In this document: piece after piece, positions 943 to 16,798 of the stretch
Layout of the letters: each line of letters opens with the position of its first letter
Numbering within the stretch: the first letter of the stretch is position 1
DNA from: Acidimicrobiia bacterium
GTDB taxonomy: Bacteria; Actinomycetota; Acidimicrobiia; Spongiisociales; UBA5794
Reading direction: 5' to 3'
Assembly: GCA_029287195.1 (NCBI GenBank)
Contig: JARFRN010000249.1
Span: forward strand, 20,352-84,351
Length of the DNA stretch: 64,000 bases
Program-made: the position numbers and the translations under genes
Notes under the pieces: generated by a model
Told to the model about the DNA's origin: nothing
Database searches by the model: none
Seen by the model: the letters and a program-made list of their open reading frames with translations, nothing else

Positions 943-1410
943 CTAGCTGCGGTATTCGGTTGCCGTGGTGGGGAAGTCGGCCTCTTGCCAGGTAAGGACG
1001 CGGTGCGGCACCGCAACCAGCACCGGGTCGAAAGAGAAGTCAGCCGGTAGTCCGTATTTGGAGGCGTAGGCAGCGAGCATCGAGGCCGACCTTTCCGGGT
1101 CCTGCTCAGCGCGGACTTCGCAATCCAGTATCACCACGTTGTCGCCGCTTTCGAGATGCACCACAGCCTTGCTCGAAGCCTCCAGATTGCGCGACTTCTG
1201 CGATTGCGCATCAACCCCGAAGTAGAACCGATCCTCGTGCCACACGCCCCAGATCGGAGTGGCATGCGGCCTGCCGTCCGGGGTTACGGTTGCGATCCAG
1301 TAGTTGCGAGCCGCCGCCAGCTCCGCTGCGACGTCTCCCCAGGGGACGAGCCCGGTTGGGTCGGGCGAGATTCCATAGCCGGAGGCAAACGTAGGACGAG
1401 ATTGCTTCAT
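943..1410 (-). CDS. Pyridoxamine 5'-phosphate oxidase-like FMN-binding family protein
   Basis: A 155-aa ORF with the PNPOx-like split-barrel pattern (WIATVTPDGRPHATPIWGVW...FYF). Good GC3 bias. Confidence 0.55.
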   Translation of the reverse strand: MKQSRPTFASGYGISPDPTGLVPWGDVAAELAAARNYWIATVTPDGRPHATPIWGVWHEDRFYFGVDAQSQKSRNLEASSKAVVHLESGDNVVILDCEVRAEQDPERSASMLAAYASKYGLPADFSFDPVLVAVPHRVLTWQEADFPTTATEYRS

Positions 1411-1443
1411 GCGGTGAATCTAGGACCTCCCGTGGAGAACCGC

Positions 1444-1474
1444 TTGACCCTGACGTTACGTGAAGGTGTACGGT
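1444..1474 (+). promoter_or_regulatory. Candidate MerR-type promoter: TTGACC, a 19-bp spacer, then TACGGT
   Basis: A -35-like TTGACC (1444-1449), a 19-nt spacer containing the near-dyad GACGTTACGTG, and a -10-like TACGGT (1469-1474). The ATG lies 8 nt downstream at 1483, which would imply a leaderless or very short-leader transcript. Confidence 0.3.
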
Positions 1475-1482
1475 ACGGGCCC

Positions 1483-2247
1483 ATGAAGAAGACGGAAAGG
1501 CTCACGGTCGGCGCTCTGGCCGGAATGGCCGGGGTGACGGTGCGCACGCTGCACCATTATGACCAGATCGGTCTGGTGGTGCCGTCCGGCCGGACCCCAG
1601 CCGGGTATAGGACGTACGGTGACGCCGAGGTGAAGCGACTCCAGGAGGTGCTCTTCTTCAGGGAACTGGGGTTCGCGCTCGACGAGATCAGGCAGATCGT
1701 GAGCCGACCAAGCTACGAGCGAGTGACCGCACTGGAGCGGCAACGAGCGCTGTTGGAAGCAAGAGCGGAGCACCTGCTGGCGCTGGTAGATGCACTGGAC
1801 CGGGCGGTGCGCGCAGAACGAACGGGAACGGCCATGACAAACGAGGAAATGCTCGAAGTGTTCGGCGACTTCGACCCCCCCGAGTACGAGGAAGAAGCGA
1901 AGGAAACCTGGGGCGATAGCGATGCCTACAAGCAGTCCGCCGCCCGCACCGCGCGCTATAGCAAGCAAGACTGGGAGACGATCAAGGCCGAGGGCGACGC
2001 CATCTACCAGCGGTTCCTGGACCTGATTGCAGCAGGCGAAGCGGCCGACGGGGAGGCGGCGATGGATGTCGCTGAGCAGCATCGGGCCCATATCACGAAG
2101 TGGTACTACGACTGCCCCAAGACGATGCATGCCGGTCTCGGCCGCATGTATGTGACCGACGCTCGATTCCAAGGGAACATCGACAAATCCGGCGAGGGTC
2201 TTGCGGAGTACATGGCGGCGGCGATTGCGGCCAACGCAGATCGCTAG
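1483..2247 (+). CDS. MerR-family transcriptional regulator, TipAL-like (N-terminal HTH plus C-terminal TipAS effector-binding domain)
   Basis: The N-terminus MKKTERLTVGALAGMAGVTVRTLHHYDQIGLV is a MerR HTH. The C-terminal half carries TipAS-like motifs (WYYDCP...GLGRMYVTDARF...GLAEYMAAAI). The internal ATG at 1483 was chosen over the ORF-track start at 1156. Confidence 0.8.
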   Translation: MKKTERLTVGALAGMAGVTVRTLHHYDQIGLVVPSGRTPAGYRTYGDAEVKRLQEVLFFRELGFALDEIRQIVSRPSYERVTALERQRALLEARAEHLLALVDALDRAVRAERTGTAMTNEEMLEVFGDFDPPEYEEEAKETWGDSDAYKQSAARTARYSKQDWETIKAEGDAIYQRFLDLIAAGEAADGEAAMDVAEQHRAHITKWYYDCPKTMHAGLGRMYVTDARFQGNIDKSGEGLAEYMAAAIAANADR

Positions 2248-2274: not shown

Positions 2275-2890
2275 CTAGCGGCGGAAGCTACGTACCAATG
2301 TGGCCGTTGCCAACCCGGCCGCCCAGCCCCCAACAACATCGAGTGGATAGTGAGCCCCGACATACACGCGGCCGGCACCAACGGTGGCGGCAAGGAGGGC
2401 GATTGCGCCGCGGCTACGGCGGGAGGCGCCTCTCGCTAGGACGGTACCCATCGCGGCTGCTACCGCGGCGTGACCGGAGGGGTACCCGAGCCCGGTTTGC
2501 GCCATGCCTCTGATCCTGACCACGCTCGCCTCAGGGTCGGGTCGGGGCCGGTTCACCACCCGCTTCAGCGGCTTGCAGACCAGCCAGGCGGCTCCACCGG
2601 CGAGAGCGACCGTGCCGGCGCGTTGCGGCCTCTGATCGACCAGGCGAGCCAATCCCGCAGTGATGCCGACGGAAGCCAGGCTGCCGAGCTGCATCACCGG
2701 CCACACCGGCACATAGAGCCGGTCCGGTAAGCCGTTGATCATGCGGAATGCGTCGTCGTCCCATCGCGGCACGCCGCGCCGTGCAAGCGCGGCCATCGAC
2801 GCGACCGTTGCCGCCGCCGGCAAACAGACCCAACGATCGGAACGTAGATACATGTCGTCCATGGCCGTCCTGAATGTGTTCGTGACCATG
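2275..2890 (-). CDS. PAP2-superfamily phosphatase (membrane-associated acid or lipid phosphatase)
   Basis: The complete PAP2 signature is present: KRVVNRPRP (Kx6RP), PSGH, and GRVYVGAHYPLD (SRx5Hx3D). The internal start MVTNTF was chosen, so the long N-terminal extension in the ORF track is probably not translated. Confidence 0.7.
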
Positions 2891-3372
2891 GTCGGGAGGA
2901 TACGGTCACCAGCGCAAGCTCGTTCGCTGAATTGCGGCGGCGGGCATCGATGGTGCCGGAAGACCCGATCGGCGGATCGCTTCAGCACGGCCGGTGCCGC
3001 CGATTGGAACTGCAACCCGTCGGGCCACAGCCAGAGCCGGGGAACACATCGCCGGTGCGCTCGATCCCACTTCCCGTGTTTGTAGCCTTTGCCGTCGTAC
3101 TCGGTGCGCCTGCCTGGGCAAGGGGTCAACGGCATCCGCATCGAGACGCCCCAAGAGCGAATTGGCAACCTGTTCGAGATCATCGTTCGCCGACTCTCGG
3201 ACTGGACGACGGCAAGATCGAGTTCGAGTCGGGCCCTAGGTGCGAGGGGCTGCGCTCAAGTGGGCCGACCGCCTCCAGCGATTCAGACTCGATCACGCTG
3301 CGGTAGTCTCCGACGAGGGCGACTTCCAGTGCTCTGCGCGGCGCTGAGGTCGCGGGGGAAGGCGCGCTGGCG

Positions 3373-6297
3373 TTGGTCGGAGTCTGGAGGACCGTGATGA
3401 ACGAGTCGAGCCCAACGCAGGGAATGCGTCTCTACGAATGGATCAACCGGCATGCCTGGCCGCTGGCAGCCGCACTGGTCGTGCTCGCGGTGGTGCTGGC
3501 CGGCCTCTTCCCTGTGGTTGCCGATGAAGGCGAGCCTTCATTCGACCCCAAAGGTGAGATCTACGAGACGCAGAGCCGTGTTCAAGAGGTCTTTTCGACC
3601 AGTTCCCCGATACGTGGCGTCTCGTTCATCGTCGAAAACCCCAACGGTGGCGACGTACTGACCCGTGATTCTCTGCTCGAGCTCAAGCAGAACCAGGAGG
3701 CAGTGCTGGCAGACGCCGAGTCGCAGCTGCACCTCACCACTTCGTTCGATCGCGAGCTGGGCATCACCGTTGATCGGATGTTTTCGATTGCCGACGCCGT
3801 CGATGAGGCCCTCCCCGGCGGCCTAGAAGCCGCCACCGACGGTGATGTCAAGCGAGCGCTCGATGCGCTGCTCGCCGATGATGCTCCGACCAGTTCGCTG
3901 CGGTTCCTGTTGTCGTCGACGTCGACGACGCAGACCCCTACCACGATCGGTGACGAGACCATCGTGGTGTGGGCATCGCCTGCGTTCTTTGCCCAGCTTC
4001 TCTACAACATCGAGACGTTCGATCCAGAGCAAGTCCAGGAGTCCTTTGGTGACGACACCAACCTCGATGCAGAGCGCTGGTTGCGAGATGTGCAAACCAT
4101 GCTGCGTTCCGGCGACAACGTCACGGTAACGGGCGTCGCCATCGACTTCGGCCTCGTGGCCGAAGAGCAGAACGCCGCGGCCGGCCCGTTCATCTTCTAC
4201 GCAGTCGCGTTGATTCTGGTTTTCGTCGGGGCCCTGCTCCGCTCGTATTGGGCGGCAATGCTCGTAGGCGCCGGGCTCGGCGTCACGATGATGGCCTACA
4301 ACGGCATCAACGCCCTGCTCGGGCTGAAGACCGGCTCGCCGCTATTGATCATGATCGTCCCCATTGCCCTGATCAGCTTTGGCGTGGACTTCTTCATTCA
4401 CGGCAGCGGCCGCGCCCGGGAGATGCAGGTCCAAGGGCAACCCCGCGAGCGTGCCTATCCGCTCGGCATGACCGCAGTCCACGCCGCGCTGTTGCTGGCG
4501 GCCCTGTCGTCGGCTGCGGCTTTCCTGTCGAATACGGTTTCGGGAGTCGAGGGAATCATCCAGTTCGGGATTGCTGCCGCCGTCGGTCTGCTCATTGCCT
4601 ACATGGTTCTAGGTTGGGTTGCTCCGAAGCTGCTGCTGTCGATCGAGGAGAAGCTTGGGGCCCGGCCTGCCGACCTCAGCCATATGCGCACCGCAGGTCA
4701 GAAGCTCGGGTTCGTCGTAGCCGCCTTCATTGCAGCAATGGCGGTGGTGGCAGCGATCGTGTTCCCATCGGCTGGCTGGGCGCTCTACCTTATCTTCCTG
4801 GGCTTGTTCCTCTACCTGCCGTACCGTCTCACCCGGCGCCGCAACCGGCGCGCCGCCGAGGCGGGTCGGCCGCTGACAGATGCCGTGAAAGGTGCAGGGC
4901 ATGGGTTCCGCGCAGCCGGTACGATCGTGCATTTCCTCGCCCGCTGGCGAGTCTTCACGTTGCCGGCGGTTGCCATCCTGGCGATTCTTGGAATCATCGG
5001 CGCCTCGCAGGTGGAGCGAGGGTTCGAGATCAAGGATTTCTTCTCGTCCAAGACCGACTTCGTCATCAGCCTCGACAAGCTGGAGCAGTACTACGGCAGC
5101 GGCGGCGGCGAATTCGACTACATCTTCGTGGAAGGTGATCTCACCTCTCCGCAAACGCTGATAGCCCTGGAGACCGCGCAGGCTGAGATCGGCGCTTCAG
5201 GTGCGGAGTTTGTCCGCAACTTCAACGACGAAGTCGAGTTCGGTGCTAACGCCGTGACGGTTGTGCGCATCGCAACAACGTCCGATCCGATGCGGGCCGC
5301 AATCGCGGATGTGACCGGGGTTGCGATCACCGATGCGGATGGAGACGGCCTCGCCGATACACCCGAGCAGATCGCGGCGATCTACGCGTATGCCCGCGAC
5401 AACGATGTCGTAAACAACGAGGGAGTCGTGGTTTTCCGGCCCGACCAGACCGAAAGGTTCCTCTATGTTGCCGAGGGTACCCAGGCAACCACGGTGGGCG
5501 TGAGTATCGCCACCTTCACTGATGACGTGATCATCCTCGACGCCAGGAGTGTCCTCGAGGCTGCCGCCGCCGGAATCGAACCGGAGTTGTCGACTGCGGG
5601 GGTTGCCGTCGCCGTGTCGGGAGGCGCCATCACCGGTCAGGACTCGCTGGATTCTTTCGTGCAGTCGATGCTGACGTCGCTACCCGTGGCAATCGTGATC
5701 ACATCGTTGCTCGTCTTCGTCACTCTGTTCTTCGTGTTTCGGCACTTCGGACGCCGTCTGGCGTCGATCCTGAAGCGGTCGGGCCGCTACGCGTTGATCT
5801 CGATGATTCCGATCCTGCTGGTTGTGGCCTGGATCTACGGGTTCATGTACCTGGTCGGCTACAAGATCAACCTGATCACCGCAACGATCGCGGCGATAGC
5901 GATTGGTGTCGGCGTTGACTATTCGACCCACTTCACGGTGCGGTTCATCGAGGAATTCGAGCACGAGCCGAGCCGCTTCCCGGCGCTGCGTCGGACGGGC
6001 GAGGGCACGGGTGGTGCACTTGCCATCTCGGCGGCCACTTCGATGACGGGCTTCATGGTGATGGCAACGGCGCCGATGCCGATGTTCGTGACCTTCGGAG
6101 TGTTGACCGCGGTGATGATCGCGTTCTCACTGCTGGTTTCGCTTCTCGTCCTACCCAGCTTGCTACTTCTCATCACCCCGTCCCGTAAGGGTGCGGAGCG
6201 TGAGGAGATGATCGAGCAGGTGACCGGCGGCGAGTACGAGTACGAGCCGCATTCCCGGGAACAGGCGTTCCACGAGCAGGGAGCTGAAACGGAGTAG
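3373..6297 (+). CDS. MMPL/RND-superfamily transporter (likely lipid exporter)
   Basis: A 974-aa protein with two 6-TM bundles, each preceded by a large extracytoplasmic domain. The second bundle has the RND-type motif GVGVDYSTHF. The exact start is uncertain (3373, 3397 and 3421 are all possible). Confidence 0.85.
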   Translation: MVGVWRTVMNESSPTQGMRLYEWINRHAWPLAAALVVLAVVLAGLFPVVADEGEPSFDPKGEIYETQSRVQEVFSTSSPIRGVSFIVENPNGGDVLTRDSLLELKQNQEAVLADAESQLHLTTSFDRELGITVDRMFSIADAVDEALPGGLEAATDGDVKRALDALLADDAPTSSLRFLLSSTSTTQTPTTIGDETIVVWASPAFFAQLLYNIETFDPEQVQESFGDDTNLDAERWLRDVQTMLRSGDNVTVTGVAIDFGLVAEEQNAAAGPFIFYAVALILVFVGALLRSYWAAMLVGAGLGVTMMAYNGINALLGLKTGSPLLIMIVPIALISFGVDFFIHGSGRAREMQVQGQPRERAYPLGMTAVHAALLLAALSSAAAFLSNTVSGVEGIIQFGIAAAVGLLIAYMVLGWVAPKLLLSIEEKLGARPADLSHMRTAGQKLGFVVAAFIAAMAVVAAIVFPSAGWALYLIFLGLFLYLPYRLTRRRNRRAAEAGRPLTDAVKGAGHGFRAAGTIVHFLARWRVFTLPAVAILAILGIIGASQVERGFEIKDFFSSKTDFVISLDKLEQYYGSGGGEFDYIFVEGDLTSPQTLIALETAQAEIGASGAEFVRNFNDEVEFGANAVTVVRIATTSDPMRAAIADVTGVAITDADGDGLADTPEQIAAIYAYARDNDVVNNEGVVVFRPDQTERFLYVAEGTQATTVGVSIATFTDDVIILDARSVLEAAAAGIEPELSTAGVAVAVSGGAITGQDSLDSFVQSMLTSLPVAIVITSLLVFVTLFFVFRHFGRRLASILKRSGRYALISMIPILLVVAWIYGFMYLVGYKINLITATIAAIAIGVGVDYSTHFTVRFIEEFEHEPSRFPALRRTGEGTGGALAISAATSMTGFMVMATAPMPMFVTFGVLTAVMIAFSLLVSLLVLPSLLLLITPSRKGAEREEMIEQVTGGEYEYEPHSREQAFHEQGAETE

Positions 6298-6319: not shown

Positions 6320-6354
6320 GTGGAGGTCGCCGTGAGGCGACCTCCACGTTCTTG
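6320..6354. terminator. Bidirectional stem-loop terminator between the convergent MMPL and PAP2 genes
   Basis: The perfect 12-bp stem GTGGAGGTCGCC / GGCGACCTCCAC with loop GTGA, followed by GTTCTTG. Confidence 0.5.
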
Positions 6355-6681
6355 CGCCTAGGTGTCCTAGGCACGAGCTTCGTCGCGCGATCCAGTCCCG
6401 GCGGGCCGACGCCTCGTCGACTTCGCCAGCAGGACTACAACTTCGGCTCGACCTGGCAACGTGAAGATGATGATGGTCACAACGAACGCGCCGTAGAGAA
6501 TGAGGGCGGCATCGGACTCATCAATCCGTCAGCGCCACCAAGCGTTGCGGCGGAATGGCGGGACTCTGCGTTTCGGATCGATCGATCCCATTCCCGAGGG
6601 CTGCTTCCGGGGCCTAGGGATGGGCCTGCTGCGGACTACCCACGGCAGGCTTGCACCACCGGGCCATTCGTCGAAAAGCGG

Positions 6682-7260
6682 CTACTCGGATACTGCGGGA
6701 ATGCCCACGGCGAGGTTGAGCCCAGCGGCAATGGCAATGCCGAGCGCGGCTCCGGCGATAACGTCGAGCGGGTTGTGAGCGCCCAGATAAACCCTGGCGA
6801 AGCCGTTGAGCACCGCCAGCAAGTAGACGATGACCGTGCCCCGGCGCCCCAGGTATGGGGCCAGCAGTCCGGCCAAGGCGAACGCAAAGATGGCGTGACC
6901 GGAAGGGAATCCGAGCGGGGACGTATTGACATCGCGAATCACGGCGTCCGGCACCGTGAAAGCAGGGCGCTCCCGCTCGACTAGAGCCTTGACCCCCCAC
7001 CATTCGAAGGCGAGCTTGAGCGGAATCGCCGCGATCAGAGCCAGTCCGAGCCGGTAGCGGCGGATGGCAACAGCGGCCAGTGCTACCACGGCAATGAAGA
7101 CCAACGAGCCAAAGATCTGAAACACCCACATCGGAGCCTCGAGCCAATCGGGAAGTCCGTTGATGACGTTGAATGCCGCTTGCTCGATACTCCCGACATC
7201 GCCGTTGCGTACGACAAACATGCAGAGCACCACCACCGCCAAACCGACGGCCGCGACCAT
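6682..7260 (-). CDS. PAP2-superfamily phosphatase, paralog of the gene at 2275-2890
   Basis: Motifs KALVERERP (Kx6RP), FPSGH and ARVYLGAHNPLD. The internal start MVAAVGLAVVVL was chosen. It lies downstream of, and on the same strand as, the kinase/flippase-like gene. Confidence 0.7.
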   Translation of the reverse strand: MVAAVGLAVVVLCMFVVRNGDVGSIEQAAFNVINGLPDWLEAPMWVFQIFGSLVFIAVVALAAVAIRRYRLGLALIAAIPLKLAFEWWGVKALVERERPAFTVPDAVIRDVNTSPLGFPSGHAIFAFALAGLLAPYLGRRGTVIVYLLAVLNGFARVYLGAHNPLDVIAGAALGIAIAAGLNLAVGIPAVSE

Positions 7261-7324
7261 GAGATCCCTGCGGGGATGACGCTCGAATTGAGCGGGGGCG
7301 CCGGAGCGAATGCGGGAGGCGAGG

Positions 7325-9856
7325 CTAGAGGGCTCCAAGGCGTTCCAGCCGTTTGTAGGCAAGGTACCCGGGCAAGATCGGAACCCAGAAGGTGCCGATC
7401 CGAAACAGGAACACCGCCGGGACTGCCGTTGCGGCATCGAGCCCGAAGGCGGTCAGTCCCGCGATCAGCGCAGCTTCTGCCGCCCCGATGCCGCCTGGGG
7501 TTGGCGCCACTTGTGCGAGAGCAGAGCCTGCAAGGTAGACGGCGGTGACTGCGACAAAGCCGAGACCGCCCCCAAAGGCGGCGATGCTATACCACAGAGC
7601 GAACACATAGGACATGGTGATCACAAACGAGCCGCCGAACAGCTCCAGCATCTTCAACGGATTGACGGCGACCGCGGTCACTCCGGTGACGGACTTGCGA
7701 AGAATTGGCCAGATTCGCCGCAACCACAGCTTGCGACCCCAGGGCAGCAGCATGATCAAGCCGGCTGCGGTCAGCACGAAGACCAGCCCGACAAGTACCG
7801 TCTGGCCGGACGGCAGCGAGATCACGTCGGTTGCCGACCGGCCTGCGGTGGTGACGAAGATCATCAACAGCAACACGTGGACTATCACGCCTGCCACGTT
7901 GTTGAGCCCAACGCCGGCGATGGCTACCGCCGGTTCGACACCGCTCTTCTGCAGGTAGCGAATGTTGGCGGCGATGCCGCCCACCTTCGCCGGAGCTATC
8001 CGATTGAAGAACGACGCTGCGATCTGCGCCAGGATGGTGGGGATGAATCGAAGCCGTTCGGGCATTGCCCCCATCAGAGCCACGGCGGCCCCGACGTAAG
8101 TCATCAGCGAGAAGAAGATGACCACCGGGAACCACTGCCAATCGGCTCCGACCACTTCGCCGAAGTCCACCTCGGCCAGCTGCGGAATCAGGATGTAGAA
8201 CGCCAAAGCCAGCATCAACATCATGAACACGGTGCGTGAGTTCACCCGCTCCAGCCTCTCGAGCTCGAACTCTTCCAGTCCCGTTGCCGCCTGCACCTCG
8301 GTGCGGAGGTCGTCGAGGAGCCCCTTTCGCTTCTTGAAGGCGTTGCGGGTAGTGGTGCTCAGGGCCGTCGGCTGCAGTCGCGGGGCGGCGGCAGCAACCA
8401 CCTCCGGCCCGAGCCGGTCGACCGCAGTGGCGACGGTTCTCTGCGGACCGACTACCAGTGTCAAAGTCGCCAGCAGCTGGGCCACGTCACCATTGAGATC
8501 ACCGTCCGATGCAGAGATCTCGGCGAACCCGAAGTCGATTAGTGTCGGCCGCCCGTCGGAAGTCAGCAGTATGTTGGCCGGGCTGAGGTGACGGTGGGTT
8601 ATCCGTGCCGAATGCAGCTTCGCCACCTGCGCCCACGTCGCTCCCAGTACCTGGTCTGTGATCTGCTCTGGGTCGACCTCGTCGAGGGTGGAGCCGTCGA
8701 TCTCTTCGTAGGCGATCAGCATGGCGCCTGCGGTGACATCGGCTACTCGCAGCATCTGTGGAGTGGCCACGCCGGCGGACGACGCCGCAAGGGACATGCC
8801 GGCCTCATGTTCCACCTCGCGGCGCAGCGAGGCAAAGGGCCGCTCGTCACCAAATCCCTTGAGCCGGGCCATGCGGTAGAGGCGAAACAGGATTTCCGCA
8901 GCCCGCTCTTCCAGGCTCCTCACCTTGACGAAGATGCCTTTGCCATCGTCGGTTGTCACCGAGTAGAGCGTGGTACCACCCGCTGCGGCGTGCGCCGGAG
9001 CAACGGAAGCAACTTGGAAGCCGTGATGCGCCAGCGCCCGGCCGACGTCGGATCCCTTTGGCCTTCTGTCGGGTGATCCGAACGCAAGAAGGACTCCGGC
9101 CCCGATCGCATAGCTCAGCGCCAGGATTAGCAGGGCGTCCACGGGAACCAATAGCCCGTCGATGAGGCGCACGACCAGGAATAGCAGCAGCACGATCCAG
9201 CCCGTCCGTCGCCACCGGCGACTCAGCCACGGGGTCAACGTCGAGAATGCCGCGGCCAACCCGGCCAGGTAAACGATGGACGGGAAGCCGTCGCCCGGCA
9301 CACAGGCATGAGATCCGAAGACCTGACGAATTGCCTCGTCCGGGTCTGTGACAAGCTCTCCGACGGCCCCCGGATCATCCGCCCGGACCCCTTGGACGGT
9401 CGACGCTGCAACGTTGTCGCAGACCCATGACGGGGGCTGTACAGCTAGCTCCGGCGGCGCAAATCGGGCGGTGAGTTCGCTTTGTATTCCCCAGGCGACC
9501 GCCACTGCCGCCACTACCGCAATCACCACCAGCGTCAAACGTCTATATCGCCTCCAGAACAGCAAGAGCCCGATCACCAGTAGAGGCAGAATCCAGGCGA
9601 CGAGCTGGATTGCGAGAATGGTGGTCACCACCATCGCGGTCGGCAGGCCATCGAACGCGTCGACCACTTCGATGGTGATACCGACGCTTATGTTGTCGAG
9701 GACACTGGCGAGCAGGAAGCCGAGTACCCCGGCGACGAGAGCTACAACGAGTCGCAACAGGTCGCTTGGCAGTCGGCCGCGTCGGTAGGCCTCATCCTCT
9801 CCTTCGACGCGGATGAGGCGCTGGCCCTGGTCGCGGGAGACGTTGTGATCGAGCAC
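7325..9856 (-). CDS. Fusion membrane protein: N-terminal TM segments, a protein-kinase-like domain, and a C-terminal LPG_synthase_TM (MprF/UPF0104 flippase-like) domain
   Basis: The kinase-like core has ...GKGIFVKVRS..., the catalytic-loop-like HRHLSPANILL, and IDFGFA (the DFG motif). The C-terminal ~280 aa has about 8 TM helices and the PF03706-type motif PTPGGIGAAEAALIAG. Total length is 843 aa. Confidence 0.75.
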   Translation of the reverse strand: MLDHNVSRDQGQRLIRVEGEDEAYRRGRLPSDLLRLVVALVAGVLGFLLASVLDNISVGITIEVVDAFDGLPTAMVVTTILAIQLVAWILPLLVIGLLLFWRRYRRLTLVVIAVVAAVAVAWGIQSELTARFAPPELAVQPPSWVCDNVAASTVQGVRADDPGAVGELVTDPDEAIRQVFGSHACVPGDGFPSIVYLAGLAAAFSTLTPWLSRRWRRTGWIVLLLFLVVRLIDGLLVPVDALLILALSYAIGAGVLLAFGSPDRRPKGSDVGRALAHHGFQVASVAPAHAAAGGTTLYSVTTDDGKGIFVKVRSLEERAAEILFRLYRMARLKGFGDERPFASLRREVEHEAGMSLAASSAGVATPQMLRVADVTAGAMLIAYEEIDGSTLDEVDPEQITDQVLGATWAQVAKLHSARITHRHLSPANILLTSDGRPTLIDFGFAEISASDGDLNGDVAQLLATLTLVVGPQRTVATAVDRLGPEVVAAAAPRLQPTALSTTTRNAFKKRKGLLDDLRTEVQAATGLEEFELERLERVNSRTVFMMLMLALAFYILIPQLAEVDFGEVVGADWQWFPVVIFFSLMTYVGAAVALMGAMPERLRFIPTILAQIAASFFNRIAPAKVGGIAANIRYLQKSGVEPAVAIAGVGLNNVAGVIVHVLLLMIFVTTAGRSATDVISLPSGQTVLVGLVFVLTAAGLIMLLPWGRKLWLRRIWPILRKSVTGVTAVAVNPLKMLELFGGSFVITMSYVFALWYSIAAFGGGLGFVAVTAVYLAGSALAQVAPTPGGIGAAEAALIAGLTAFGLDAATAVPAVFLFRIGTFWVPILPGYLAYKRLERLGAL

Positions 9857-9931: not shown

Positions 9932-10426
9932 CTATTCGACGGGAGTTGCCACCAACGTGCCGTCGACCATTTCGCCGGAGATGGTGACCGAGTAGTCGGT
10001 CCACATTACGTTGCCCGCGGTTTGGAGGCTATCCGGGTCGACCTGACCGAGGTCTGTAACGGTGACGAAGGCCCCGCCGCACTGCGGCGGGAAAGACTCG
10101 GCAAGTGCCTCGCAGATCTTGATCTCGTTACCTACGGCGACGATGAAGCCTGCAACCGCGACGGGGCCGGAGACATCGGCGGCGTCCCCAGGTTGGATTG
10201 CCGCCGGAAGCGGCTCATCTGTGACATCTCCAGGCGTCGGCAAGTCGGTGGGTTCGCCGCCGGGGGTGTCGTTGCAGTCGGGCTCGCCCTCGAGGCAGGC
10301 GCTGGCGATCGGCCGGTCGTCCCCGGAGCCACTATCGATCGGCAGTTCTTCGGTGGTTTCAGAATCGCCGCCGCACGCAGTGACAACGAGAGCGAACGAA
10401 GCTATCAAGAGTAGGGGTCTCTTCAC
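9932..10426 (-). CDS. Hypothetical secreted lipoprotein
   Basis: Signal peptide with lipobox (LVVTAC-GG), an acidic Pro-rich linker, and four Cys in the C-terminal domain. Confidence 0.5.
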   Translation of the reverse strand: MKRPLLLIASFALVVTACGGDSETTEELPIDSGSGDDRPIASACLEGEPDCNDTPGGEPTDLPTPGDVTDEPLPAAIQPGDAADVSGPVAVAGFIVAVGNEIKICEALAESFPPQCGGAFVTVTDLGQVDPDSLQTAGNVMWTDYSVTISGEMVDGTLVATPVE

Positions 10427-10489: not shown

Positions 10490-11359
10490 TCAGAGAGCCT
10501 GATACCACTCGCGGATTGCCGATCCGATCTCGTCGGGTGAGTCCTCCTGGATGAAATGTACGCCGCGAACGGTCACTTCGGTCTGGTTGGGCCAGCTCCG
10601 GCAAAACTCACGGGGCACGCCGGTGAGGATGGAACCTGGTTCGGCGTTGATGAAGAGCTTGGGAATCTCCGACTGCCGTAGCCAGCGCCCATAGTCTCTC
10701 ACGATGCTGGCAACGTCCTCAGGTTCGCCTTCGACAGGTATCTGGCGCGGCCACGTGAGGGTGGGTCTCCGGCTTTCCCCGGGCACAACGTAGGGAGCGC
10801 GGTACATCGCCATCTCTTCGTCGGTCAAGTCGCGCATGATCGACGACGGCAGGATGCGCTCTACGAAGACGTTCTTTTCCAGGATGATGGTCTCTCCCGC
10901 TGGTGATCGCATCGCCTGGAAGATGGAACGAGCTTCTTCGGGCCACATCTCCCAGCTGATGCTTTGAACGAATGCTTCCATGTAGGCGATGCCCTTGACT
11001 CGATGGCGGTGGCGGTTGGCCCAATCGAAGCCGAGTGCACTTCCCCAGTCGTGAATGACGAACGTGACCCGATCGCCGATATCGAGCTGTACCAGCAGAT
11101 CATCGAGAAACTCTCGGTGCTCCACGAAGCGGTAGCTGTCGGGGCCGGGATCATCGAGCGCGTCCGAGTCGCCCATACCGATGAGATCGGGGGCGATGCA
11201 ACGGGCGAGGTCCGAAAGGTGGGGGATTATGTTGCGCCACAGATAGGAAGAGGTCGGATTGCCGTGCAGCAACAGAATGGTGTCTCCTTCCCCCACGTCG
11301 ACATAGGCCATCTGCTTGCCGAGCACAGATGCGTATTGCTTCTTCATGGGAGCTCCCAC
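10490..11359 (-). CDS. dhaA: Haloalkane dehalogenase (HLD-II, DhaA-like alpha/beta hydrolase)
   Basis: It aligns motif-by-motif with DhaA from memory: HGNPTSSYLWRN (halide-binding Asn), HDWGS (nucleophile Asp and halide-binding Trp), YMEAF (catalytic Glu) and GVHFIQEDSPD (catalytic His). Confidence 0.85.
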   Translation of the reverse strand: MGAPMKKQYASVLGKQMAYVDVGEGDTILLLHGNPTSSYLWRNIIPHLSDLARCIAPDLIGMGDSDALDDPGPDSYRFVEHREFLDDLLVQLDIGDRVTFVIHDWGSALGFDWANRHRHRVKGIAYMEAFVQSISWEMWPEEARSIFQAMRSPAGETIILEKNVFVERILPSSIMRDLTDEEMAMYRAPYVVPGESRRPTLTWPRQIPVEGEPEDVASIVRDYGRWLRQSEIPKLFINAEPGSILTGVPREFCRSWPNQTEVTVRGVHFIQEDSPDEIGSAIREWYQAL

Positions 11360-11979
11360 TATGAGTCTGTCTTCACTCCGAGTTTGCCAAGTTCAGCCCG
11401 CAGTTGATCCGGATTCTCGAATCTGATTGCGATGAACCCGAGCCGGGTTGCGGTGGCCACATTGCGGGGAGCATCGTCGATGAAGATGCATTCCGGAGCA
11501 CTGCGGGCGATGCGTTCCAGCAGGATCTCGTAGATTCGGGGATCGGGCTTGATCACCTTCTCCTCGCCGCTCACCACGATGGTCTCGAACCAGTCGAGAA
11601 ACTCGTAGCGCTGCCGGGCAATCGGGAAGGTCTGTGTCGACCAGTTGGTTAGGGCGTGAAGCTCGTAGCCTGCGTCGCGTAGCGATGCCAGGATGGCGAC
11701 CGTCCCTTCGATGGGTCCTGCGAGCATCTCATCCCATCGTTCCCAGTAGGCGCTGATGAGCCCGGCCATATGGGGATGCTGTGCGCTGAGCAGAGCGACA
11801 CCGTCCTCCCACCGCCTACCGGCATCGTGCTGGGCGTTCCATTCGTTGGTGGCGACCTCAGCGAGGAAATTTTCCATTTCGGCTTCATCATTGAATACCT
11901 TGCGATACATGTGGCGCGGGTCCCAGTCGATCAGCACCCCTCCGAGGTCGAAGACGACCACTCTGTTGTTTGACGTCAT
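11359..11979 (-). CDS. HAD-superfamily hydrolase (subfamily IA, epoxide-hydrolase N-terminal phosphatase-like)
   Basis: HAD motif I VVVFDLGGVL, motif II LTNWS, and the motif III/IV region K...FIDD. It ends exactly where dhaA starts, with the stop and start sharing coordinate 11359. Confidence 0.75.
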   Translation of the reverse strand: MTSNNRVVVFDLGGVLIDWDPRHMYRKVFNDEAEMENFLAEVATNEWNAQHDAGRRWEDGVALLSAQHPHMAGLISAYWERWDEMLAGPIEGTVAILASLRDAGYELHALTNWSTQTFPIARQRYEFLDWFETIVVSGEEKVIKPDPRIYEILLERIARSAPECIFIDDAPRNVATATRLGFIAIRFENPDQLRAELGKLGVKTDS

Positions 11980-12662: not shown

Positions 12663-13343
12663 TCATCCTGTCAGCTGCGACCAAAATCGGCGCGGGCTGT
12701 CGATGATACGGCTGGCAGCGGTCACGGCAAGGAGAGCCGTGGCGGGGTGATCATGCCCAAATCGAGCTATGAAAGTCTGCTGCTCCAGTGAAAGCGGTCC
12801 GAACCGGAGAGCCTCGATCAGTGCGACACCCGGGGAGTGTCCCTCTCCCGCTTGCAGAGCTGCGATGACACTGCCCGTGCGTCCCACGCCCGCCTGGCAG
12901 TGCACGAATACCGGTCCCGAGGCGGCAGTGATCGTCTCTCTGATCTCGGCGAGCTGCGCTGCAGTTGGGGTCTGGCCGTCCCGAATCGGGATGTGAATCC
13001 AAGCGAGCCCGGCTTCAGTGGCTCGGTTTGACGAGGTCGTAGGTTCGGCCTCAGCCCTGAGGTCGATCACTGCGACAACGCCACCATCGGCCAGGGCCGC
13101 GTATCCCTCGGGACTAGGTGCGGCACCCCGCCAAACGTTCTCGGTCACCCGAGCGAAACCCTCGACCCCGATGAAGGCTTCGACCGGCGAACCTCGCAGT
13201 AGTCGAACTGCGAAGTGCGGCGCCGCAACCAGCAGGTGCATCACCGTAAGGACTGCAGTCATCAGCAGCAACTTCCTCAGCCCGCGAGGCGTCGGTCGTC
13301 CTGCTATCTCCGAGGCGGCATCTTTGCCCGCTGTGATCATCAT
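12663..13343 (-). CDS. Protein-tyrosine / dual-specificity phosphatase family protein with an N-terminal membrane anchor
   Basis: CX5R P-loop HCQAGVGRTG, preceded by a hydrophobic segment LLLMTAVLTVMHLLVAA. Confidence 0.65.
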   Translation of the reverse strand: MMITAGKDAASEIAGRPTPRGLRKLLLMTAVLTVMHLLVAAPHFAVRLLRGSPVEAFIGVEGFARVTENVWRGAAPSPEGYAALADGGVVAVIDLRAEAEPTTSSNRATEAGLAWIHIPIRDGQTPTAAQLAEIRETITAASGPVFVHCQAGVGRTGSVIAALQAGEGHSPGVALIEALRFGPLSLEQQTFIARFGHDHPATALLAVTAASRIIDSPRRFWSQLTG

Positions 13344-13541: not shown

Positions 13542-14207
13542 CTACAGCTTGCGGTTCATCCGCTGGATGTGCCTCATCCGCCTGCGTGCGGAGCGGCTGG
13601 AGCCCTGAGTTCGAGGGGGCGGTTGTGGAGTGGACTGCGGAGGCGCGTCGGACATCGGCGTCCGGGTGGTCGGCCGCCAAATGCGTATGACCAGCAGACC
13701 GGTGGCAATCACCCCGGCGGAAACGATCCCGAGTGCGGCCGTTCTCAACACCTTGGCATCGGCGGCATCGGCTGCTACCGATGAACCCTCCGGGGTCCGA
13801 CCTTCAGCGGCGCCGACGGCTTCTTGATAGGCGGCCGGGATCGCGGATCCGGTCGGTTCGTAGGGTCGGGTCGCCGAGCAGATGCTGGCCAGAAATGGAG
13901 TCCGACTGTTCTCCGGAACGACCAGGTAAGTGGCGCCGGCCACGAACTTGGCAGCGTTTTCCCCGGTGGAGTCGGTGCCGTGGACTTCGACTCGGCCGGG
14001 CAGATCGCGGCCCTTCCATATGGACACGACGCGCATGGTGGCCGTGTGGCCGTCCTCGGTCGTAGCTGCCACCTCGCCGACGAACACGGTCGAGGCCTCG
14101 CCCAAGGCCTGGGCGACGTCGGTCGGAGGGCTACAGGTAGCGATCGCAGTTGCGGGTGCGGCCAGCAGCAGCCCGACGGCCGCGGTGAGGAGCAAGCTGC
14201 GCATCAT
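13542..14207 (-). CDS. Hypothetical exported protein (signal peptide plus C-terminal TM anchor). Last gene of a TadE/TadG-like operon.
   Basis: N-terminal signal MMRSLLLTAAVGLLLAAPATA, a C-terminal TM helix, then a basic Pro-rich tail. Its start overlaps the stop of the upstream gene by 4 bp. Confidence 0.45.
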   Translation of the reverse strand: MMRSLLLTAAVGLLLAAPATAIATCSPPTDVAQALGEASTVFVGEVAATTEDGHTATMRVVSIWKGRDLPGRVEVHGTDSTGENAAKFVAGATYLVVPENSRTPFLASICSATRPYEPTGSAIPAAYQEAVGAAEGRTPEGSSVAADAADAKVLRTAALGIVSAGVIATGLLVIRIWRPTTRTPMSDAPPQSTPQPPPRTQGSSRSARRRMRHIQRMNRKL

Positions 14208-15976
14208 CGAATCAGCTGGGTGTCAGGGTCGGCGGGGAAGAGGACGGCCCGGTCGAAATTGGGTCGGACGACCAGCAGACCCTGTCCCTCGGAACTCAGG
14301 GTTCTGGAAACGAACTGAGCGGCCACCTGCTCCTGAGACCCATTGCCTCGGTAAACGACCCGGGCCCACGGGGCAAAGAACACTCCTTCGAGGTCGAGCG
14401 CCGCCTGGCCGGCAAGCTGGTGGACGGCGGGCGACTCGGACCACATCGAGAGCGCTTCGAAGTTGCCGCTCTGCGGGCCGGTCCAGGTGAGAGCTCCCGT
14501 GCCGCCCGACATTGCAATACCCGAGGAGGCCGAGTAGTACATCATCGTGTTGTAGAGAAGCACGCTCCCCTCTCCGGCCTTGATCAGGTTGCCGTTACGC
14601 ATGTAGGCAATGGCTGCATCCGAGTCCGGGCTGTAGGGGTAACCACCGGCGGGTTTGCTGTTGAGTGCCAGCACACCGCTTGACTCGACGACTACATCGC
14701 CATCGAAGATGACGTCACCGGCAGGGAACACAACTGTGCGCTTGACTTCGAACGGATCGCAGTCGATGTGCCAGTTCCCGGCAGGTGCGATGATCTCGGT
14801 CCCCGGTCCGCCTTCAATGGAGCACGGATAGCCGGCCCCGGTCCAGGAAGTGAAACCGGTCGGCGTGCCCGTACCGCCATATGCGGCCACAAGGTTGTCG
14901 ATGTGCGGCGCCGGAGCATCTGTGCAGGGATCGATTTCCCACCCCACCGGCATCGGGTAAGCGGCTTTGCAGTTGAAGCGGTGATCGACCGGCGCTCGCG
15001 TTATTCGCTCTCTACCTGCGCTCGGGTCGGGGGACACGGTCCCGGAGCTGGTGCAGGCCGGGTAGTTGCATCCCGGTGTGCCCGGCGCCAACAGCCGGAG
15101 GGCACCGCAGCCCTCTCCAACCGTTAGCCCTCCGGGGCCCACGTGTGTGCCCGTCTCTGTATCACATCCGGTGGGCCCGTCGGCCCGGATGTAGGCATTG
15201 CTGCCGTCGACGTCGAGGACACCGTCGCCGCCGCATACGCCGGAGGCATCGGAATCGATCGCAATGTAGCCGGGGTCGAGTTCGCCGGTGTCCGTATTGA
15301 GGACGGCGTCGACGACGATGCCGCCGAGACCGCCGCCGCTGCCTGCTGCGGTGATGGTGTCACAGTCGTACCGCTCGAGGATGAGCAGGTTGAGCGCAAA
15401 GTCCTCGCTCGGTGGAATGAAGGTCTTGGCTACCGAGGAGACCGTTGTGTCCTGCGAGGCGGCGCCGATAATCGAGGCGAAGAGGTGTTCATGGTTGCTG
15501 GTTATCGAGACTCCGAACCGCTCGCATGGGTCGCCGTCATCGGTGCTGATCGCCTGGCCGCTGGCTCCGATGGCGGAGGGGTCGAGCAGCGCTGCCGCAT
15601 CAGGGACGGGGTAGGTCAGCGTTACCGTCCAGTCCCCTGATGTGCCCGTCGTGGTCGTTGACGGGGTCGAGGCATCACATGAGGTAGGGAACCCGAGGCA
15701 GGAGGCGCCGCTGAGCGTGCCCACCCCGGAGAGGTTCAGCTCGAGGTAGTCGAGGGCGGTTTCACAGCCGGCGCGACCGTCTCCTTCGGCTGCGTCGAGC
15801 GCTCCGGCGGTTGATGCAGCATCGGCGGCAACGAGGCTGGCGGCTCGGTTCGATCGCACCGCACCCAGGTCGATTACCAGAGCAGCGATGGCGAGCAGCG
15901 TAACCAAGGCGATGGCAACGATGAGCAGCACCGCACCTTCTTCTCCGGTCCGGCCGGTAGTTTTGGCCGTCCGCAT
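14204..15976 (-). CDS. TadG-like / Flp-pilus-assembly TadE/G-like domain protein (large secreted Gly/Thr-rich protein)
   Basis: The N-terminus GAVLLIVAIALVTLLAIAALVIDLGAVRSNRAASLVAADAASTAGA matches the Tad (PF13400-like) pattern. The remaining 590 aa are Gly/Asp/Thr-rich and extracellular-looking. Confidence 0.6.
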   Translation of the reverse strand: MRTAKTTGRTGEEGAVLLIVAIALVTLLAIAALVIDLGAVRSNRAASLVAADAASTAGALDAAEGDGRAGCETALDYLELNLSGVGTLSGASCLGFPTSCDASTPSTTTTGTSGDWTVTLTYPVPDAAALLDPSAIGASGQAISTDDGDPCERFGVSITSNHEHLFASIIGAASQDTTVSSVAKTFIPPSEDFALNLLILERYDCDTITAAGSGGGLGGIVVDAVLNTDTGELDPGYIAIDSDASGVCGGDGVLDVDGSNAYIRADGPTGCDTETGTHVGPGGLTVGEGCGALRLLAPGTPGCNYPACTSSGTVSPDPSAGRERITRAPVDHRFNCKAAYPMPVGWEIDPCTDAPAPHIDNLVAAYGGTGTPTGFTSWTGAGYPCSIEGGPGTEIIAPAGNWHIDCDPFEVKRTVVFPAGDVIFDGDVVVESSGVLALNSKPAGGYPYSPDSDAAIAYMRNGNLIKAGEGSVLLYNTMMYYSASSGIAMSGGTGALTWTGPQSGNFEALSMWSESPAVHQLAGQAALDLEGVFFAPWARVVYRGNGSQEQVAAQFVSRTLSSEGQGLLVVRPNFDRAVLFPADPDTQLIR

Positions 15977-16479
15977 CAGGTGGCCCGTTCGAAACGGACG
16001 GTCGACTCGCCCTGCAGGGTGAGAGTCGTGCTCCAGAGCACGAGAACCAGGTCGGAATCACGCGCCAACTGCACCTGGACGCGTCGTTCATCGTTGGGTC
16101 GACCGTCGGCAAAGCACGTGTTGTTTACCGACACGGTGCGAACTCCGGTGGAATTGACCAGGATGCGGGCGGTGCGGTCATCCGCATCGCTTCCGTCCGG
16201 GTAGACGTAGGCGATACAGACCGCGCGCCCTTGAATGCCGTCGTCGAGGTCACCCGTCGCCGAGCGGATCGCCACGTCGGCTACGTCGTTGAGCCACGTC
16301 GACATGCCGCTCTCCACCGGCAGCGTAGCCCCGTAGCGGGCAGCCTCCCGTGCCGCATTGTCCACCGAAATATTGCGATTGAACGCGATGCCGCCGGTGA
16401 TGATGCCCATGAGGATCATCAGCAGCAATGGCAGAACAAACGCAAATTCGACTAGTTGAGCACCTTGTTCGTTGCGCAT
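15976..16479 (-). CDS. TadE/TadF-like pseudopilin family protein
   Basis: The TadE N-terminal motif GAQLVEFAFVLPLLLMILMGIITGG, followed by AAREAARYG. The internal start MRNEQG was chosen. Confidence 0.65.
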   Translation of the reverse strand: MRNEQGAQLVEFAFVLPLLLMILMGIITGGIAFNRNISVDNAAREAARYGATLPVESGMSTWLNDVADVAIRSATGDLDDGIQGRAVCIAYVYPDGSDADDRTARILVNSTGVRTVSVNNTCFADGRPNDERRVQVQLARDSDLVLVLWSTTLTLQGESTVRFERAT

Positions 16480-16798
16480 GCGGGTTGTCCAGGTCGTCCG
16501 CCCATAGGATTCAGACCCGCCGGTGTCCATCGGTGGAGCCGTGCTCCGCCAAGCCCTTCTCGGTTTCATTGAGATCGCCTACCCCTTGCTGGCTCTCTTT
16601 CGACCTGAACGGCGATGACCGCCGCAGACAGATCGTCTTGCCGTGTTATCGGCAACTGAGAGCGAAATCTTGAGCGCGTTCCAGAAGCTCGACCGCAGCT
16701 CTTGCGCTGGGCTCGAGCAAGAACGAGTAGGGGGTTGGCTATTGGAATGCGGCTGCCACGGCGCGACAATGAACGCAGGTCGCACGAGGAGCGATGTC

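Follow-up and report, generated by a model that had tools for sequence, protein, structure and literature searches.

The 843-aa membrane protein encoded at positions 7325–9856 of the window (the whole 64,000-nucleotide stretch of DNA analyzed here), on the minus strand and from a GTG start, combines a degenerate PAP2 domain, a kinase-like domain depleted of catalytic residues, and an intact MprF-type PplT domain. Our preferred reading, to which we assign a probability of roughly 55%, is that of a PplT-type lipid translocase carrying two pseudo-enzyme accessory domains, for which phosphatase activity is supplied in trans. The original prediction, of a membrane protein with a kinase-like middle and a flippase-like C-terminus, was correct for both of these domains but overlooked that residues ~28–262 form a degenerate PAP2 domain. 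Its overall interpretation is supported in part; the points that need correcting or lack support are the rarity of the fusion, the number of domains, the coupling to phosphotransfer, and the breadth of the links to MMPL and PAP2 neighbors.

A large and conserved three-domain family

The gene is real, and all motifs previously quoted for it are present in the translation, namely GIFVKV (containing Lys311), HRHLSPANILL (residues 421–431), IDFGFA (440–445), and GGIGAAEAAL (788–797). The kinase–flippase fusion had been described as unusual, which it is not: homologues make up ~1,009 clusters (50% identity, E ≤ 1e-30) carried by at least 500 species genomes, and more than 200 full-length homologues of 780–850 aa have an identical domain order. 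The family, found in Actinomycetota and Chloroflexi, is large and already catalogued, with a "protein kinase N-terminally fused to PplT" listed among the commonest PplT architectures in a 2022 preprint (bioRxiv 10.1101/2022.03.11.483950). This is the same family, with the same kinase-then-PplT order, although the preprint lists the architecture only, without the PAP2 domain, pseudo-enzyme states, or functional work; beyond it, we find that the N-terminal third is PAP2-derived and that the clade of the window protein is doubly degenerate. Literature searches for the pairing of LPG_synthase_TM with a kinase did not return this combination, and neither the pseudokinase review nor the Lipocone paper that we consulted covers the PAP2–kinase–PplT family.

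Either the fusion or its HRH motif could in principle be an artifact, if a missing stop had run two unrelated genes together or if the frame or sequence were in error, and we give this explanation virtually no credence. No point in its support was found. The ortholog survey shows a conserved fusion, with the domain order shared across the full-length homologues, and so rules out two separate halves joined by a lost stop. As an independent NCBI record, an 88.5-kb contig, encodes an identical protein, and HRH recurs in 52 of the 120 closest homologues (with the HRD type in 35), the motif is neither a frame nor a sequencing error, and the full-length AlphaFold model (pLDDT 80.8) likewise speaks against an artifact. 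The whole protein is under purifying selection, with 88% identity of close relatives over the full length and the strongest conservation in the PplT domain (0.46 bits).

This most conserved part, the LPG_synthase_TM/PplT flippase-like domain (residues 551–830; 7367–8206, minus strand), contains the invariant APTPGGIGAAEAALI. The earlier assignment of a C-terminal LPG_synthase_TM/UPF0104 domain is borne out by Pfam, with PF03706 scoring 97.8 bits (cutoff 33.4; E 1e-27) over profile positions 7–302 of 302, and the domain has the fold of the MprF flippase domain. The protein is nevertheless distinct from MprF, the bifunctional Lys-PG synthase/flippase: the Pfam scan found no C-terminal aminoacyl-phosphatidylglycerol synthase domain in the window protein, the bifunc_MprF model (NCBIfam NF033480) aligns to the flippase part alone, with 44 bits where 600 are required, and the domain order differs, with the accessory domains of the window protein being N-terminal.

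A degenerate PAP2 domain at the N-terminus

The six-helix PAP2-fold membrane domain (residues ~28–262; 9071–9775, minus strand, as for all of its elements) shares the fold of PgpB, BcrC, and LpxE, which are membrane PAP2 lipid-phosphate phosphatases, and is related to them at the level of sequence profiles. Both homology to PF01569 and the fold of its six-helix core are present, but none of the catalytic motifs of that family, C1 (KxxxxxxRP), C2 (PSGH), and C3 (SRxxxxxHxxxD), which are intact in distant members of the present family. By alignment, C1 is reduced to S126...A133-P134 (9455–9481); C2 reads P-S193-I194-V195, having lost its His (9272–9283); and C3, RxxxxxHxxxD, has become R230...L236...D240 with loss of the nucleophile His (9137–9169). 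All three motifs are lost in 221 of the 269 members sampled as well as in the window protein, which for this reason cannot be classified as carrying an active PAP2. A further difference from PgpB, BcrC, and LpxE is a Cys-flanked 38-aa insertion in the active-site loop (residues 146–185 with the flanking cysteines; 9302–9421), which is modeled at low confidence and predicted to be extracytoplasmic. Cys146 and Cys185 are nearly invariant, making a disulfide between them possible.

We note that it took profile methods and distant relatives to bring out the PAP2 homology of this domain. Scanned on their own against Pfam, the first 270 aa matched only TM7S3_TM198, below threshold, and not PAP2.

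The kinase-like domain and the decay of its active site

Residues ~270–528 (8273–9049; all coordinates in this section are on the minus strand) form a minimal protein-kinase-like domain with a helical extension, joined to the PplT domain by a low-confidence linker (residues 529–568; 8153–8272; pLDDT <50). The middle of the protein had been described as a eukaryotic-like Ser/Thr-kinase core, and the Lys, Asn, DFG, and HRH elements cited for it are all as quoted; the fold, however, is of the minimal Bud32/RIO/APH-like type. PF00069 (Pkinase; cutoff 31.7 bits) scores 30.6 bits on the whole protein and 32.9 bits on the isolated domain, covering only profile positions 97–153 of 263 (residues 397–453 of the window protein). 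Lys311 of the VKV motif, the β3 Lys (8924–8926), Asn428, and Asp441 of the retained D441-F-G (8528–8536) are conserved, as is Glu317, while in the catalytic loop H421-R-H423-L-S425-P-A-N428 (8573–8596) the HRD Asp has been replaced by His423 and the basic +2 residue by Ser425. Neither GxGxxG nor an APE after the DFG could be found in the window domain, which has no activation segment or G-H-I subdomains of the canonical kind; the equivalent of the glycine-rich loop (residues 288–300; 8957–8995) reads AAGGTTLYS here and DARGSTPYF in HRD-type relatives.

The closest fold is that of the Bud32 and RIO atypical kinases, and the structural neighbors are minimal kinases including APH, MTR kinase, WaaP, and choline kinase. 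Scores against the specific models for Bud32, RIO, Kdo/WaaP, and APH nonetheless lie far under the curated cutoffs and do not assign the domain to any of these families (Bud32 TIGR03724, 55.4 bits vs a cutoff of 125); RIO1 PF01163 scores 19.9–22.6 bits vs a cutoff of 22. Those families also carry HGDL, whereas the ancestral form here is the ePK-like HRDLRLAN, the catalytic Asp of which is lost in the window protein. With a kinase fold and a substituted HRD Asp, the domain fits the operational definition of a pseudokinase, a kinase fold with at least one catalytic residue missing. Assignment to the ActPs2 class (HRN, K-to-R, DFG deleted) was considered and rejected, since the window protein keeps K311 and the DFG.

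Comparison across the family places this substitution in a series. Among the 120 closest homologues, the +2 Arg accompanies HRD in 35 of 35 cases and is absent from every HRH and HRN member (the HRH clade comprising 49 HRH+S and 3 HRH+T); in a wider sample, Arg or Lys at +2 beside HRN or HRH was seen only three times. Loss of the catalytic Asp has gone together with loss of the +2 Arg. In a neighbor-joining tree with six changes, the root state is D and the HRH clade is nested inside the HRN clade, and HRH is the end of a decay series running from the ancestral HRDLRLAN through HRN to HRH. As for the PAP2 site, all 19 members with three intact PAP2 motifs in the sample examined keep the Asp, and the Asp-less single-module members have a dead PAP2 in all but one case. 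The family ancestor was an active PAP2, an HRDLRLAN kinase, and PplT, and in the lineage of the window protein the PAP2 site decayed first, after which the kinase Asp gave way to Asn and then to His.

These data bear on whether the kinase-like domain could instead be an enzyme with altered chemistry, in which His423 serves as general base or phospho-acceptor, and a lipid headgroup or protein is phosphorylated at the expense of ATP in a step coupled to flipping. His423 is strictly conserved across 60–88% identity and invariant inside the HRH clade, Lys311, Asn428, and Asp441 are kept, and weak activity persists in HRN-type kinases such as HER3; residual or altered catalysis is therefore conceivable, and both the conserved Glu317 and Phe-Gly and the small-molecule kinases among the structural neighbors are in line with it. 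Against this, the His arose from Asn-bearing ancestors, a state already without the base, and the residue switches between N and H among sister lineages (inside the H clade lie P0043, P0044, and P0051). In addition to the missing +2 Arg, the segment corresponding to the DARGSTPYF loop is the most variable part of the kinase in the HRH clade, with an entropy of 2.17 bits compared to 0.62 bits for HRD-type members; outside this loop the HRH clade shows the least diversity, yet its nucleotide loop is unconstrained. We consequently regard altered chemistry as quite improbable and the previously suggested phosphotransfer-coupled function as unlikely for this clade, and retain the pseudokinase reading.

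Gene neighborhood, proposed mechanism, and significance

Directly downstream lies PAP2_b (6682–7337, minus strand), by sequence a stand-alone PAP2 phosphatase with intact KALVERERP, PSGH, and RVYLGAHNPLD motifs. It probably starts at a TTG that overlaps the main gene's stop codon, an arrangement also called in the related loci L083 and L085, and the two genes are for this reason probably co-transcribed. A second stand-alone PAP2 with intact motifs, PAP2_a (2275–3183, minus strand), probably has its true start downstream of 3183, and an MMPL/RND-type transporter (3373–6297, plus strand) is convergent with PAP2_b. Upstream, a predicted 164-aa lipoprotein with a signal peptide and the Cys in ...VVTACGG (9932–10426, 75 nt from the main gene, conserved in L004 and L085) is followed by an α/β-hydrolase (10490–11359) and a HAD hydrolase (11359–11979), all on the minus strand, with the synteny of the two hydrolases common to L004 and L085. 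Between 6200 and 10600, there were no promoter-like sites, and terminator-like sites occurred at background rate.

Of the neighbors that had been singled out, PAP2 is linked to the family as a whole, but MMPL occurs only beside the closest relatives (the window, L004, L006, L007, L083, and L085). By a count of domain envelopes in species-representative loci, 46 of 62 HRD-type loci have an intact PAP2 gene no more than 2.5 kb away, and 0 of 17 Asp-less loci have a stand-alone PAP2 neighbor, to which pattern the subclade of the window, L083, and L085 is the exception. The idea of a PAP2 acting in trans is therefore limited to this subclade, and fails in L001 and L004. When neighbor genes from 80 loci were clustered, PAP2 was the only pathway-specific partner to emerge, followed in frequency by MarR, DUF7144, and DUF389.

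Taking this into account, our preferred reading is of an inner-membrane protein working as follows. From PAP2 topology and the positive-inside rule, we infer that the kinase-like domain is inside and the PAP2 remnant outside. The former PAP2 active site would thus face outward, where the shell, now without its two catalytic histidines and the Lys/Arg of C1, may serve as an outer-face docking or binding site for a lipid-phosphate headgroup. The cytoplasmic pseudokinase would act as a conformational or scaffolding switch, perhaps still binding nucleotide, and the PplT domain as a lipid translocase or lipid handler, with the phosphatase chemistry coming in trans from PAP2_b and perhaps also PAP2_a. 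The lipid handled could be a phospholipid (PG/PGP, for example) or else a polyprenyl phosphate. There are two precedents: in E. coli, a two-hybrid assay picked up an interaction of PplT/YbhN with PgpB, a PAP2 enzyme, and in M. tuberculosis a pseudokinase domain with a regulatory role is part of MviN/MurJ, the lipid II flippase.

The MviN/MurJ case also suggests a different role, in which the pseudokinase is mainly a phospho-regulated docking platform, phosphorylated by a separate Ser/Thr kinase or an HRD-type paralogue and recruiting a regulator that turns the translocase on or off, much as the MviN pseudokinase is phosphorylated by PknB and recruits FhaA. Potential partners exist in some genomes: MAGs carry an Asp-less copy alongside a canonical HRD one (L009 with L014, L055 with L020), and close relatives have an adjacent two-domain PAP2–kinase gene with HRDVKPAN. 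However, no FHA-domain or Ser/Thr kinase gene adjoins the window gene, and tblastn and HMM scans of the window for a paralogue or second kinase-like gene matched only the two PAP2 genes. The likeness to MviN/MurJ, an actinobacterial lipid flippase with a noncatalytic kinase-fold regulatory domain, is one of outline: its flippase belongs to the MOP superfamily, unrelated to PplT, its domain order is the opposite, it has no PAP2 domain, and its pseudokinase is of the ActPs3 class, with all motifs destroyed and no ATP binding, rather than the Bud32/RIO-like minimal fold seen here in place of an ActPs3-type bSTK. We consider a docking platform unlikely, and keep to the translocase with two pseudo-enzyme accessory domains and a phosphatase in trans.

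What the intact ancestral members do (e.g., P0243 of Anaerolineae, P0186, and P0266) invites a more speculative proposal, which we think rather doubtful, that they are self-contained lipid-phosphate cycling machines of which the window protein is a doubly "dead" descendant. In such machines, a carrier lipid or phospholipid would lose its phosphate at the outer face, be flipped, and be phosphorylated again at the inner one, and the window protein would have kept translocation and binding while handing the phosphatase step to the overlapping PAP2_b. If true, this would amount to a recycling system of a new type for carrier lipids or phospholipids.

In practice, the window gene should be annotated neither as an active Ser/Thr kinase, nor as an undecaprenyl-diphosphatase, nor as an MprF. 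It adds a membrane-embedded double pseudo-enzyme, a pseudo-PAP2 with a pseudokinase, to a field in which a recent review of bacterial pseudokinase families mentions neither PAP2, MprF, nor flippases. PplT/UPF0104 is very widespread, and flippase activity of PplT domains outside MprF has only been proposed (bioRxiv 10.1101/2022.03.11.483950). In this family, PplT, a lipid-phosphate phosphatase, and a cytoplasmic kinase are permanently joined, and its natural variants, with the phosphatase site switched off first and then the kinase site, are a comparative series on PplT transport and its control.

Domain composition and spread of the fusion

The gene at 7325–9856 (−) opens with a GTG start and encodes 843 aa, and all motifs on which the original prediction rested are present in the window sequence, namely GIFVKV (containing Lys311), HRHLSPANILL (421–431), IDFGFA (440–445), and GGIGAAEAAL (788–797). 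The protein comprises three domains, each with homology, the first two of which lack catalytic residues; the original prediction captured the kinase-like and flippase-like parts but missed the third, a PAP2 domain. The C-terminal LPG_synthase_TM (PplT) domain is borne out by Pfam across residues 551–830 (97.8 bits vs a cutoff of 33.4), and is both intact and the most conserved part of the protein. The kinase-like middle is matched by several profiles, but less firmly: the Pkinase match is partial, limited to the catalytic-loop/DFG part, and borderline (30.6 bits for the whole protein and 32.9 bits for the isolated domain, cutoff 31.7), the APH, RIO1, and Kdo models in Pfam all lie close to threshold, and Bud32, the top NCBIfam kinase model (5e-15), falls far under its cutoff.

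The kinase–flippase fusion, originally regarded as unusual, is neither unusual nor an artefact, because many homologues conserve it and the architecture is already on record. Of 232 homologues from a word-indexed search, the 120 best-scoring are nearly all 780–850 aa long, with full-length coverage and 42–88% identity; the nearest relatives are Acidimicrobiia MAGs. With the N-terminal 545 aa as profile (flippase part excluded), a search of 1.84 billion representatives yielded 1,009 clusters (50% identity) at E ≤ 1e-30, the majority ~800 aa in length. Among species-representative genomes the profile had relatives in at least 500 stretches, from Thermoleophilia and from Acidimicrobiia, Ilumatobacter and Microthrixaceae among them; one cluster with intact PAP2 originates from Chloroflexi/Anaerolineae. 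An artefactual fusion or HRH is refuted by the conserved full-length homologues and by an NCBI record of the identical protein, encoded on a contig of 88.5 kb; the G+C content of the window is 60–65%. As the kinase–PplT architecture is already catalogued (bioRxiv 10.1101/2022.03.11.483950), the protein does not count as a new kind.

We assign the N-terminal domain to PAP2 because both profile–profile comparison and Foldseek support it: 91 N-terminal domains, all catalytically dead, match 49 stand-alone PAP2 proteins with 98% probability (E 3e-13, 182 columns), and the five top PDB matches of a separate AlphaFold model of residues 1–268 (pLDDT 76) are E. coli and B. subtilis PgpB and LpxE. Several JGI records also name homologues "undecaprenyl-diphosphatase", and five distant members retrieved by an N-terminal-plus-kinase profile (P0186, P0266, P0124, P0130, and P0133) contain a genuine Pfam PAP2 domain (1e-15 to 1e-36) in exactly the region homologous to residues ~30–260. 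By alignment, these members and PAP2_a and PAP2_b, the two stand-alone PAP2 genes of the window, have all three PAP2 motifs intact, whereas in the three-domain protein they are substituted: C1 (KxxxxxxRP) reads S126...A133-P134, C2 (PSGH) reads P-S-I194-V195, and C3 (RxxxxxHxxxD) reads R230...L236...D240.

We note that the former PAP2 active-site loop holds a 38-aa low-confidence insertion (window 9302–9421 (−), residues 146–185), which has the nearly invariant Cys146 and Cys185 on either side, a possible extracytoplasmic disulfide, and does not occur in the most distant relatives of HRD type. PAP2 topology and the RRYRR/RRWRR loops would place the N-terminus, the kinase-like domain, and the beginning of PplT in the cytoplasm and turn the PAP2 remnant with its insertion outward.

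Loss of the kinase and PAP2 sites

The ortholog survey of HRH versus HRD shows that HRH recurs: among the 120 closest homologues, 52 carry HRH-L-S/T, 29 HRN-L-G/S/A/N/T, and 35 HRD-L-R-LAN. Within this set the Asp and the +2 Arg, which occupies the Lys position of HRDLKxxN, are without exception both kept or both lost. On a neighbour-joining tree computed without these two columns, the root is HRD+R, and parsimony counts six changes; the derived Asp-less clade bears Asn and the HRH clade is nested inside it, with a few N/H alternations, and thus His423 replaced Asn, not Asp. The equivalent of the Gly-rich loop is a nearly invariant DARGSTPYF in the HRD clade (mean entropy 0.62 bits), but in the HRH clade it varies more than any other kinase-domain segment (2.17 bits), even though the HRH clade is the least diverse in both the PplT (0.46 vs 1.06 bits) and PAP2-like (0.79 vs 1.51 bits) domains. 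Lys311, Glu317, Asn428, and Asp441-Phe-Gly are still conserved. At the sequence level, the domain carries the signature of a pseudokinase, which would retain its fold, and perhaps bind nucleotide, while having lost phosphotransfer. The retained Lys, Asn, and DFG set beside a substituted Asp could also be read as altered, His-dependent catalysis, which we consider improbable.

The order of decay was examined in a sample of 269 proteins, made up of the window protein together with its 120 closest relatives and 148 more from the representative search. The catalytic Asp is kept in 19/19 kinase modules with all three PAP2 motifs, and 221 are without any PAP2 motif: in 76 of these the kinase is fully canonical, in 102 (including the window's) the Asp is lost and K/N/D kept, in 28 the loss goes further, and in 15 the Asp remains but another residue is lost. 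Second modules of two tandem giants aside, a single protein combines loss of the Asp with two of three PAP2 motifs kept. In this sample the PAP2 site decays first and the kinase site later, which suggests that the ancestral PAP2 and kinase activities were functionally coupled. Two tandem PAP2–kinase–PplT modules, the second degenerate in some, occur in P0124 (1978 aa, HUF31647.1), P0126, P0130, and P0133. MAGs MFD09964.bin.1.311 (loci L009 + L014) and Ww271 (L055 + L020) each hold an Asp-less (HRN) and a canonical HRDLRLAN copy of the three-domain protein, and thus the two types are paralogues able to coexist.

Genomic neighbourhood

An alpha/beta-hydrolase, a HAD hydrolase, a small lipoprotein, the three-domain gene, and PAP2_b follow one another on the (−) strand. 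PAP2_b has intact motifs, its probable TTG start (7337) overlaps the main-gene stop (7325–7327), and no terminator-like site lies between the two, which are probably co-transcribed. An MMPL transporter is convergent with PAP2_b, followed by the intact PAP2_a and a MerR/TipAS regulator. The PAP2/MMPL setting noted in the original prediction holds for the window and for L083 and L085, the closest two of the metagenomic relatives examined, where main gene, overlapping PAP2, MMPL, and second PAP2 recur, but the full arrangement is absent from L001 and from L004, which is 88% identical and has a directly adjoining MMPL gene.

In a set of 80 species-representative loci, 46/62 of HRD type vs 0/17 of HRH/HRN type have an intact stand-alone PAP2 no further than 2.5 kb away (Fisher p = 1.5e-8); having PAP2 neighbours, the window subclade is an exception in the Asp-less group. 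L081 and L082, two cases only, have an intact fused PAP2 and no stand-alone neighbour. MarR, DUF7144, and DUF389 are the next most frequent neighbours, and no further conserved neighbour indicates a specific lipid pathway.

In place of a stand-alone PAP2, several Asp-less loci adjoin a ~585-aa two-domain PAP2–kinase gene without PplT (HRDVKPAN). Close relatives of the window gene have it at L002:5245–6993 (+), L009:10501–12267 (+), and L084:3607–5352 (−), also in L003, L006, L007, and L032, with PAP2 at the Pfam threshold, the C3 His lost, and "DVA" replacing DFG; the window has none. The window also encodes a DSP/PTP-like phosphatase (12663–13343 (−), PF22741/PF22785, about 1e-20) upstream of the HAD/hydrolase/lipoprotein genes on the same strand, as L085 also does, TadE/TadG-like pilus assembly genes (14204–16569 (−)), and a SulP-family transporter with STAS domain (17205–18893 (−)). 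The MerR-family regulator with TipAS antibiotic-recognition domain (1156–2247 (+)) adjoins PAP2_a and MMPL, a MerR–MMPL pairing common to L004. The 210-aa ORF at 6352–6984 (+) has no family match, overlaps PAP2_b in antisense, and is probably spurious (a high-GC ORF).

Proposed role

Taking these observations together, we favor, with a probability of roughly 0.55, a scheme in which the main protein would be a PplT-type lipid translocase or lipid handler. Its dead PAP2 shell would serve, without catalysis, to bind or dock lipid phosphates at the outer face, and its pseudokinase would be a conformational or scaffolding switch in the cytoplasm, with PAP2_b supplying phosphatase chemistry in trans. 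Two precedents fit this scheme: by two-hybrid assay, E. coli PplT (YbhN) interacts with PgpB, a PAP2 enzyme, and mycobacterial MviN/MurJ is a lipid flippase carrying a regulatory pseudokinase domain. MviN-like regulation by phospho-docking, through a paralogous or separate kinase, seems to us rather unlikely.

In the literature searched, we found neither the PAP2 identity of the N-terminal third nor the two-step decay, in which the PAP2 site goes before the kinase site and the latter passes from D through N to H while the +2 Arg is lost alongside and the nucleotide loop is released, nor the clade-dependent linkage to stand-alone PAP2 genes. Beyond the translocase scheme favored for the window protein, intact members of the family could conceivably, if at long odds, be self-contained machines in which a lipid is dephosphorylated, flipped, and re-phosphorylated, which, if true, would be of high interest.
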